Sequence record: NZ_CP145916.1
Origin: a plasmid
DNA: 64,000 bases
Strand: one strand, 5' to 3'
How positions within the stretch are numbered: the stretch's first letter is position 1; each line of letters begins with the position of its first letter. A program made the position numbers. Of this stretch, positions 63,001-64,000 are shown in pieces.

Positions 63001-64000
63001 TTTGTCTCGTTCTTCTGTATGTGCGCGGCCTTGTGGGCTATGTCATTCCCTGTGTACCGTCCGGCTATTCATTTCCTGAGTAGCGTTTTGAAATAATCAT
63101 GACAGGCAAACAGAGCGTTTACCGAAGGATCGCGCTATAGCCTCTCATCTCCTGCCTCGCTATTCACATTAACGTTAAAGACTTAAATTCTATAGCCGAT
63201 AAATCAAATATTTATAAAAATATTTGGAAGAAAAACGGAGGTATCCTTGTTTTTCTGGCTGAACTACCAGAAGACAAAGCTTATCAGATGTATTCTGATG
63301 CGGTTCGATAAACCTGTCTTACCAGAAAGGGAACAAACTCAGATGAAAATCATCAAAATCTATACACCTCATGAACTGGCTCTGTTGAGAGATCCTGCTT
63401 TCAGATTGATAGTGATAGAGGCTATTGGTACAGATGGATTCGTTGAGCAATATAATCTACTAAATAATGTCTCACTTAATCAGCCTAAGAACGGTCTGGA
63501 GGTATTAATCGATCAGGCTACAGGGGCAGCAGATAAGCATCAACGCGTATACTTCAACGGACTTCTTAAATTTATCTATGAAACTGTATACTTACGGTTA
63601 GAACCGATGGCTTTGGGGTAGTTCCGGGAACCGTTGTCGGGTAATGAATGGGTTTACCTTTCATTGCCCGGCAGCGGTTGGACAAGCGTAGCGCGTCAGA
63701 TATTCCTCCACATTACCATCATTTAAAGTTATCCACATATCCACCGTGTAGATCCAATAATAGATCCATAGAGAGATCCAGATAAAACCAAAAAGATCCC
63801 CGTGGTCTGTAGCCTTACTGCCACAAGGCTTACAACGTTTTTCGGTGTGTGCTGAGGGGAAAAAGGTGTGTGCTGAGGGGAAGAAAGTGTGTGTTACGGG
63901 GATTTGGGTGTGTGCTGAGGGGAAAAAAGGTGGGCGTCACGGGGAAAATGTGATACTTTTCCACAATCGTAGCATTTACGTGGGGGGGAATTATTTTATT

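Follow-up and report, generated by a model that had tools for sequence, protein, structure and literature searches.

The origin of the IncT prototype plasmid was delineated by deletion mapping in the 1980s, and the homologous oriR of P1 has been heavily studied. For the IncT prototype, Rts1 of Proteus vulgaris, Itoh, Kamio and Terawaki reportedly described in 1987 a 188-bp ori that holds four GATC sites and part of the incII repeats, the DnaA boxes being dispensable but stimulatory. We take incII to be the array of five iterons located upstream of repA in Rts1, and incI to be the second array, which follows repA. In the passages of the later literature that summarize this work, ori(Rts1) is given as nucleotides 51-238 of Rts1, and ori together with repA is stated to suffice for autonomous replication (PMC9845711, citing Murata et al., 2002 and Itoh, 1982); the autonomous replication of ori plus repA, the temperature-sensitive maintenance and the IncT incompatibility of Rts1 are recounted in similar passages (PMC9845711; PMC10838148). 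When the genes of Rts1 were deleted systematically, repA alone was left in place (PMC10838148). Furthermore, a passage of another paper places Rts1 among the plasmids that need DnaA in addition to their own initiator and cites the DnaA-box deletions of Itoh and Terawaki (1989) in this regard (PMC3155836).

In the P1 record (AF234172), oriR is annotated with an 18-bp DnaA site, five Dam sites, five RepA-binding iterons (incC) within which the promoter PrepA is located, repA, and nine incA iterons. P1 and P7 (IncY) share with Rts1 the tandem DnaA boxes, the AGATCC[A/C] heptamers that contain the Dam sites, the spacer, the five iterons, repA and the second iteron array. Beyond this type, the replicons with Rep_3 winged-helix initiators, namely F ori2/RepE, pSC101, R6K gamma/pi and pPS10, follow the same logic, in which phased iterons and one or more DnaA boxes accompany an A+T-rich region that opens, the adjacent rep gene regulates itself, and control is exerted through titration and handcuffing (PMC5395669); however, their similarity to Rts1 is confined to the domain level, their iterons are unrelated to those of Rts1, and the Dam-heptamer block is a feature of the P1/Rts1 type.

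Identity of the plasmid and location of the origin

The stretch of DNA analysed here, 64,000 nucleotides from the plasmid record NZ_CP145916.1 (hereinafter the window), terminates in the ori(Rts1)/incII region of mini-Rts1: positions 63691-64000 are identical to nucleotides 1-310 of Rts1 (NC_003905.1 = AP004237; 310/310, 0 mismatches). The neighbours are the same as in Rts1, with an ORF of 92 codons upstream and repA downstream, and so is the backbone, including higBA, psiA and parAB. The Rts1 record matches the window query as far as its own last base, 217182, and positions 1-63690 are collinear with Rts1 152126-217182 at >99.9% identity. The differences lie only outside the origin and consist of an IS2 insertion, a 30-bp indel and 3 mismatches between 42875 and 63690. 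The IS2 copy (~1.34 kb) of the Rts1 reference is absent from the window, where the insertion point maps to ~17573, in the tra region, and the reference has 30 extra bp near window 42880; the overall nearest relatives of the window are the IS2-free p18004577_Rts-type plasmids of Providencia rettgeri. A megablast search of PLSDB with window 63200-64000 matched ten records, six of which span the whole query at 99.8-100% identity, and six other IncT plasmids have the same junction between the origin and repA, with 99.8-100% identity over 801 bp. Taken together, the identity and the collinearity with Rts1 imply that the window is the final 64 kb, up to repA, of an IS2-free Rts1-type IncT plasmid. 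The source record was probably rotated so as to begin at repA, as is the case in pBML2531.

A reading made from the sequence alone (hereinafter the sequence-only reading) had suspected a relationship to Rts1, a suspicion that the 310/310 identity to NC_003905.1 bears out, and had described the end of the window as an iteron-type theta-replicon origin, a description that is supported by the identity with Rts1, the homology of RepA and the alignment with P1 oriR. It is almost certain that this segment comprises ori(Rts1) and the associated incII iterons, that is, the vegetative theta-type origin of an IncT Rts1-like plasmid, and that the ATG of repA is the next base after the window. This assignment is based on a sequence identical to that of Rts1, on elements that are all present and in order, on homologous Rep proteins and on a conserved architecture. 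The ori(Rts1)/incII region is a feature already known, and the origin itself brings no novelty.

The rep gene had been expected to begin just beyond the window, and this expectation holds to the base: the replication initiator CDS is annotated at 311-1177 in Rts1, so that repA (288 aa) starts at the base equivalent to window 64001, both in Rts1 and in the six near-identical IncT plasmids that share the junction. Because repA and incI lie outside the window, their presence in this very molecule is predicted from the relatives with 99.8-100% identity.

The same reading had linked the higBA locus at 41.3 kb to the proximity of hig and the replication region in Rts1. The locus is indeed present, as the original hig toxin-antitoxin locus of Rts1 (higB at 41302-41580 and higA at 41580-41894), but it is located ~22 kb upstream of the origin and thus marks the identity of the plasmid, not the function of the origin.

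Elements of the origin

The features recognized at the end of the window are as follows.

63729-63737, plus strand: DnaA box 1, TTATCCACA, a perfect match to the consensus, aligned with the first box of the 18-bp DnaA protein_bind feature of P1 oriR.
63737-63745, plus strand: DnaA box 2, ATATCCACC, with 2 mismatches, sharing one base with box 1.
63741-63928, plus strand: the published minimal ori(Rts1), Rts1 nucleotides 51-238, mapped with Rts1 nucleotide 1 at window 63691.
63750-63800, plus strand: four AGATCC[A/C] heptamers with Dam sites (GATC at 63751, 63763, 63775 and 63795), A-rich and low in GC.
63801-63843, no strand assigned: spacer of ~43 bp between the heptamers and the iterons, of higher GC, with a short inverted repeat AGCCTT...AAGGCT.
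63844-63949, plus strand: five iterons, the incII array of Rts1 (63844-63864, 63865-63885, 63886-63906, 63907-63928 and 63929-63949), predicted to bind RepA.
63950-64000, plus strand: promoter and leader region of repA, with a Shine-Dalgarno-like run of G at 63982-63990, followed by the repA ATG at 64001.
63957-63965, plus strand: DnaA-like box TTTTCCACA, with 1 mismatch, in the repA leader.

The tandem DnaA boxes sit at the rep-distal edge of the origin, as in P1-type oriR. The perfect box, which the sequence-only reading had correctly placed at 63729, is the single perfect match in the window; given that ~0.5 perfect 9-mers are expected by chance in the 128 kb of two-strand sequence, this box alone is not significant, and its weight comes from its fixed position in the relatives, where it is essentially invariant among six related origin modules (it reads TTATCAACA in one). 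The two other boxes, ATATCCACC and TTTTCCACA, both of which are present, did not figure in that reading. Box 2 corresponds in the alignment to the second P1 box, TTATCCACT, once a 1-bp deletion is allowed between the boxes, and its TATCCAC is kept in the modules of K. oxytoca. The box in the repA leader aligns with boxes of the T-T-A-T-C type that the related modules have at their right end.

The heptamers read, in order, AGATCCA, AGATCCA, AGATCCA and AGATCCC. The cluster of four GATC sites stands as originally reported, except that its first site is at 63751 rather than 63752 and its span, to 63798, is 48 rather than 47 bp; the next-tightest run of four sites in the window spans 235 bp. GATC is rarer than expected in the window (180 occurrences vs 236 +/- 14.5 in shuffles), and a run of four as tight as this one arises with P ~0.045 (4.5% of the trials in a simulation with uniform placement), so the improbability of the cluster, taken alone, is modest. 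Of the 12 AGATCC[A/C] heptamers present on both strands of the window, 4 fall in this block, all on one strand and within 51 bp, and Tandem Repeats Finder detects a 12-bp periodicity here. The GC content is 0.35-0.43 in the heptamer block vs 0.48-0.55 in the iterons. The heptamers align with the annotated Dam methylation sites 1-5 of P1 oriR, by analogy with which the block 63750-63800 is the probable site of strand opening. The spacer that follows is equal in length in all aligned relatives and poorly conserved in sequence.

The iterons are spaced by 21/21/21/22 bp. Copies 1, 2 and 4 are exact (GGTGTGTGCTGAGGGGAA), whereas copy 3 (AGTGTGTGTTACGGGGATTTG) shows 8 and copy 5 (GGTGGGCGTCACGGGGAAAAT) 7 differences from the 21-mer consensus; even these degenerate copies retain the TGTG...GGGG frame. 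Accordingly, the earlier description of five tandem copies of GGTGTGTGCTGAGGGGAAAAA at 63844-63950 is accurate with respect to the five-unit array, three units of which are near-perfect, and only approximate with respect to the other two, and the array ends at 63949. Tandem Repeats Finder scores the 21-bp array at 106 and a 42-bp super-period at 127. A search of the remainder of the 64-kb window found no further iterons. In Rts1, where the upstream array is identical, at least nine direct and two inverted copies of the iteron follow repA (nucleotides 1207-1803, outside the window) and form the second array, incI. The literature and the P1 annotation suggest that the iterons are binding sites for RepA.

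That these motifs came together by chance, or are the remnant of a dead replicon, might be argued from the ~0.5 perfect DnaA boxes expected in 64 kb and from the position of the rep gene, which is not inside the window. Nevertheless, three exact occurrences of the 18-nt iteron core contrast with 0.05 expected in shuffles at <=3 mismatches, the segment is 100% identical to the functional origin of Rts1, its architecture is kept in replicons whose Rep proteins are only 44-61% identical, and IncT is the sole replicon type given in the Rts1 record. The probability of such an assemblage or remnant is vanishingly small.

As mapped onto the window, the published minimal ori takes in iterons 1-4 as well as the heptamers. 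The quoted interval does not reach the perfect DnaA box, which is thus auxiliary and non-essential. The mapping fits the 188-bp ori with dispensable DnaA boxes that is said to have been defined in the 1980s. A fragment equal to 63741-63928 alone reportedly replicates when RepA is supplied in trans.

Related replicons and the upstream hairpin

The origin in the window aligns with P1 oriR element for element, at 77% column identity. The five iterons correspond one-to-one to iterons 14-10 of P1 incC, which are annotated as RepA binding sites, with identical spacing (21/21/21/22) and similar cores (GGTGTGTGCTGAGGGG in Rts1 vs GATGTGTGCTGGAGGG in P1). The two origins differ in the number of Dam heptamers, four in Rts1 and five in P1, in the DnaA boxes, which in Rts1, unlike in P1, overlap by one base and of which the second is weaker, in the arrangement of the downstream iteron array, and in the incompatibility group, IncT vs IncY.

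The distance of the DnaA box from the rep start is nearly constant, at -272 in Rts1, -277 in P1, -271 in Pantoea and -269 in K. pneumoniae pM297-1.2; in these replicons, the GATC heptamers lie between -254 and -203 and the iterons at about -160 to -55. The spacing of the iterons in K. pneumoniae is the same as in Rts1 and P1, and in Pantoea it is 42/21/22, one copy being undetected. The iterons of Pantoea and K. pneumoniae pM297 have diverged and escaped a search pattern tuned to Rts1 and P1, but a repeat search recovered them. The RepFIB-type and related replicons (IncFIB of E. coli and Klebsiella, Pantoea rep_cluster_1441 and the pKOX-type rep_cluster_2127), with Rep proteins 44-60% identical to Rts1 RepA, resemble Rts1 in the succession of the DnaA box, the GATC-heptamer block and five phased iterons upstream of rep, and their iteron sequences have diverged along with the Rep protein; in two IncFIB plasmids, neither the pattern nor the repeat search detected an iteron array upstream of rep. 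Unlike Rts1, the pKOX-type plasmids possess two tandem origin modules (2630-2875 and 3016-3258 in both L010 and L011), each with a pair of DnaA boxes, GATC heptamers and five iterons; the rep gene follows the second module only.

Across a six-way alignment of origin modules, which includes both modules of one K. oxytoca plasmid, TTATC.ACA, GATCCAATAA, AGATCCC and the TGTG...GGG frame of every iteron unit are invariant, whereas the other iteron positions vary with Rep. The combination of invariant host-factor sites with varying iterons is the pattern expected if the Rep binding sites co-evolve with Rep.

The location of the array directly upstream of repA is that expected of an operator, and the incII iterons could be conceived of as chiefly a determinant of copy control and incompatibility that doubles as the repA operator, with initiation taking place elsewhere. 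At least nine iterons of the same family lie downstream of Rts1 repA, where no initiation is known, and the pKOX-type plasmids have an upstream module that is complete yet has no rep gene after it. However, these roles are not exclusive, as the same five iterons of P1 are annotated both as oriR and as incC; the minimal ori, in the form in which it is quoted, extends over the heptamers and four of the iterons; and the DnaA boxes, the Dam heptamers and the A+T-rich block are features of an origin rather than of an operator and are conserved in register. A purely regulatory role of the array thus appears very unlikely.

Arrays of short repeats are also common among centromeres, and an operon for a ParA/ParB pair (57739-60014) is located 3.7 kb upstream on the same strand, which brings up a partition site of the parS/sopC kind. 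Against a centromere speak the five genes and 3.7 kb that separate parB from the repeats, the homology of the repeats, position by position, to the RepA iterons of P1 and not to P1 parS, and the recurrence of the same repeats after repA. The tandem repeats at 57642-57723 (an 11-bp unit x 3.3 followed by a 22-bp unit x 1.9), directly upstream of the parA-like gene (57739-59031) and hence next to the par operon, fit this role better and are a candidate operator or centromere for the ParA/ParB pair. We attach hardly any probability to a centromeric role of the iterons.

Between the last ORF of the window (63343-63621) and the origin, the plus strand contains a hairpin of ~74 nt (63626-63699), with a stem at 63629-63679 of 20 bp, including G.U pairs, and an almost invariant 20-nt tail, GGTTGGACAAGCG[T/G]AGCGCGTCAG. 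The hairpin folds at -43.3 kcal/mol (z = -5.0) on the plus strand and at only -26.2 kcal/mol on the minus strand. The 92-aa product of the ORF directly upstream is annotated as hypothetical, and a homologue that is 60% identical is encoded in the same position in the pKOX-type plasmids. In these plasmids of Klebsiella, Serratia and Citrobacter, the hairpin occupies the same place, between the homologue of the 92-aa ORF and the origin modules (2502-2575 in L010 as well as in L011), and the stem is kept through three compensatory double changes, with 98.8% of the cells paired vs 26-54% when the partners are slid. A scan of window 63000-64000 against Rfam gave a match at chance level only. A second copy of the hairpin, 90.6% identical, is located at ~45059-45142 (74-nt element at 45069-45142), just 3' of an ORF. 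The possibility of an origin beside this copy at 45.1 kb was rejected, as inspection of the sequence there revealed no DnaA box, GATC cluster or iterons.

Since the hairpin lies outside of Rts1 nucleotides 51-238, the origin does not need it. The hairpin is probably a transcription terminator or a 3'-end stabilizer. The conserved tail, which a terminator leaves unexplained, gives some room for a different reading, namely a nucleic-acid signal for replication or for establishment after transfer (an ssi-like priming signal or a processed regulatory RNA), undescribed for this plasmid group; we consider this reading doubtful.

RepA, its expression and the proposed course of initiation

Rts1 RepA matches the Pfam family Rep3_N (WH1, PF01051) with 26.6 bits vs a gathering cut-off of 22.4 bits (E = 8.8e-6); the NCBIfam models and a sequence search of the PDB gave no match to this protein. 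With P1 RepA it shares 61% identity over 283 aa (E = 9e-134), and with P7 RepA likewise 61%; it is 60% identical to the Rep of a Pantoea plasmid, 52%, 48% and 46.5% identical to RepFIB-type proteins of Klebsiella and E. coli, and 44% identical to the Rep of the pKOX-type plasmids. The segment of P1 RepA that is recognized by DnaK, 36-RLGVFVPKPSKSKG-49 (PMC5395669), reads RLGLFVPKPSRSS in Rts1 RepA, in which the P1 recognition motif, RLGVFVPKPSKS, is kept as RLGLFVPKPSRS.

Both the Rts1 annotation and the P1 RepA alignment favour Rts1 311 as the true start of repA, which gives a protein of 288 aa. Several public annotations begin the gene upstream, within the first iterons (Rts1 155-1177 in p18004577_Rts; 4667-5668 in L002; 4646-5668 in L003), and the reading frame stays open across the iterons into repA (window 63844-64000 onward).

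A consensus scan for the repA promoter gave no credible site. TCCACA-18-AATAAT, located inside the DnaA and heptamer region, was rejected, as was TTTACG-16-TATTAT, an implausible site that overlaps the repA ATG. Transfer of the P1 PrepA hexamers by alignment failed as well: the -35 and -10 elements of P1 (TTGCTA and TAGGAT) are not conserved at the aligned positions of Rts1, which read ATTTGG and AAAGGT and make poor hexamers. TGTGATACT at 63949-63957 could tentatively be considered a candidate extended -10 element.

By analogy with P1 oriR, initiation would start with the remodelling of RepA dimers into monomers by DnaK/DnaJ/GrpE, and the monomers would then fill the five iterons, whose phasing corresponds to two helical turns. 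Assistance would come from host DnaA at the pair of boxes on the left edge, and possibly also at the box in the repA leader. RepA and DnaA together would melt the neighbouring block of four AGATCC heptamers, A+T-rich and methylated by Dam, and DnaB would be loaded there. Hemimethylation after firing would probably delay re-initiation. The steps that involve the chaperones and Dam, and the site of opening, are likely by homology to P1 oriR, which has been dissected experimentally. The incII iterons, together with the at least nine incI iterons, may titrate RepA and pair origins according to the handcuffing model, which is described along with the DnaK motif of P1 RepA (PMC5395669), and this would result in low copy number and incompatibility. 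RepA bound near its own promoter would, in addition, autoregulate repA.

For the annotation of IncT plasmids, the analysis fixes the true start of repA and shows the window to be the terminal 64 kb of a plasmid of the Rts1 type that lacks IS2. More generally, an origin architecture that is kept across replicons with Rep proteins only 44-61% identical illustrates how the host-factor sites stay fixed whereas the iterons co-evolve with Rep.
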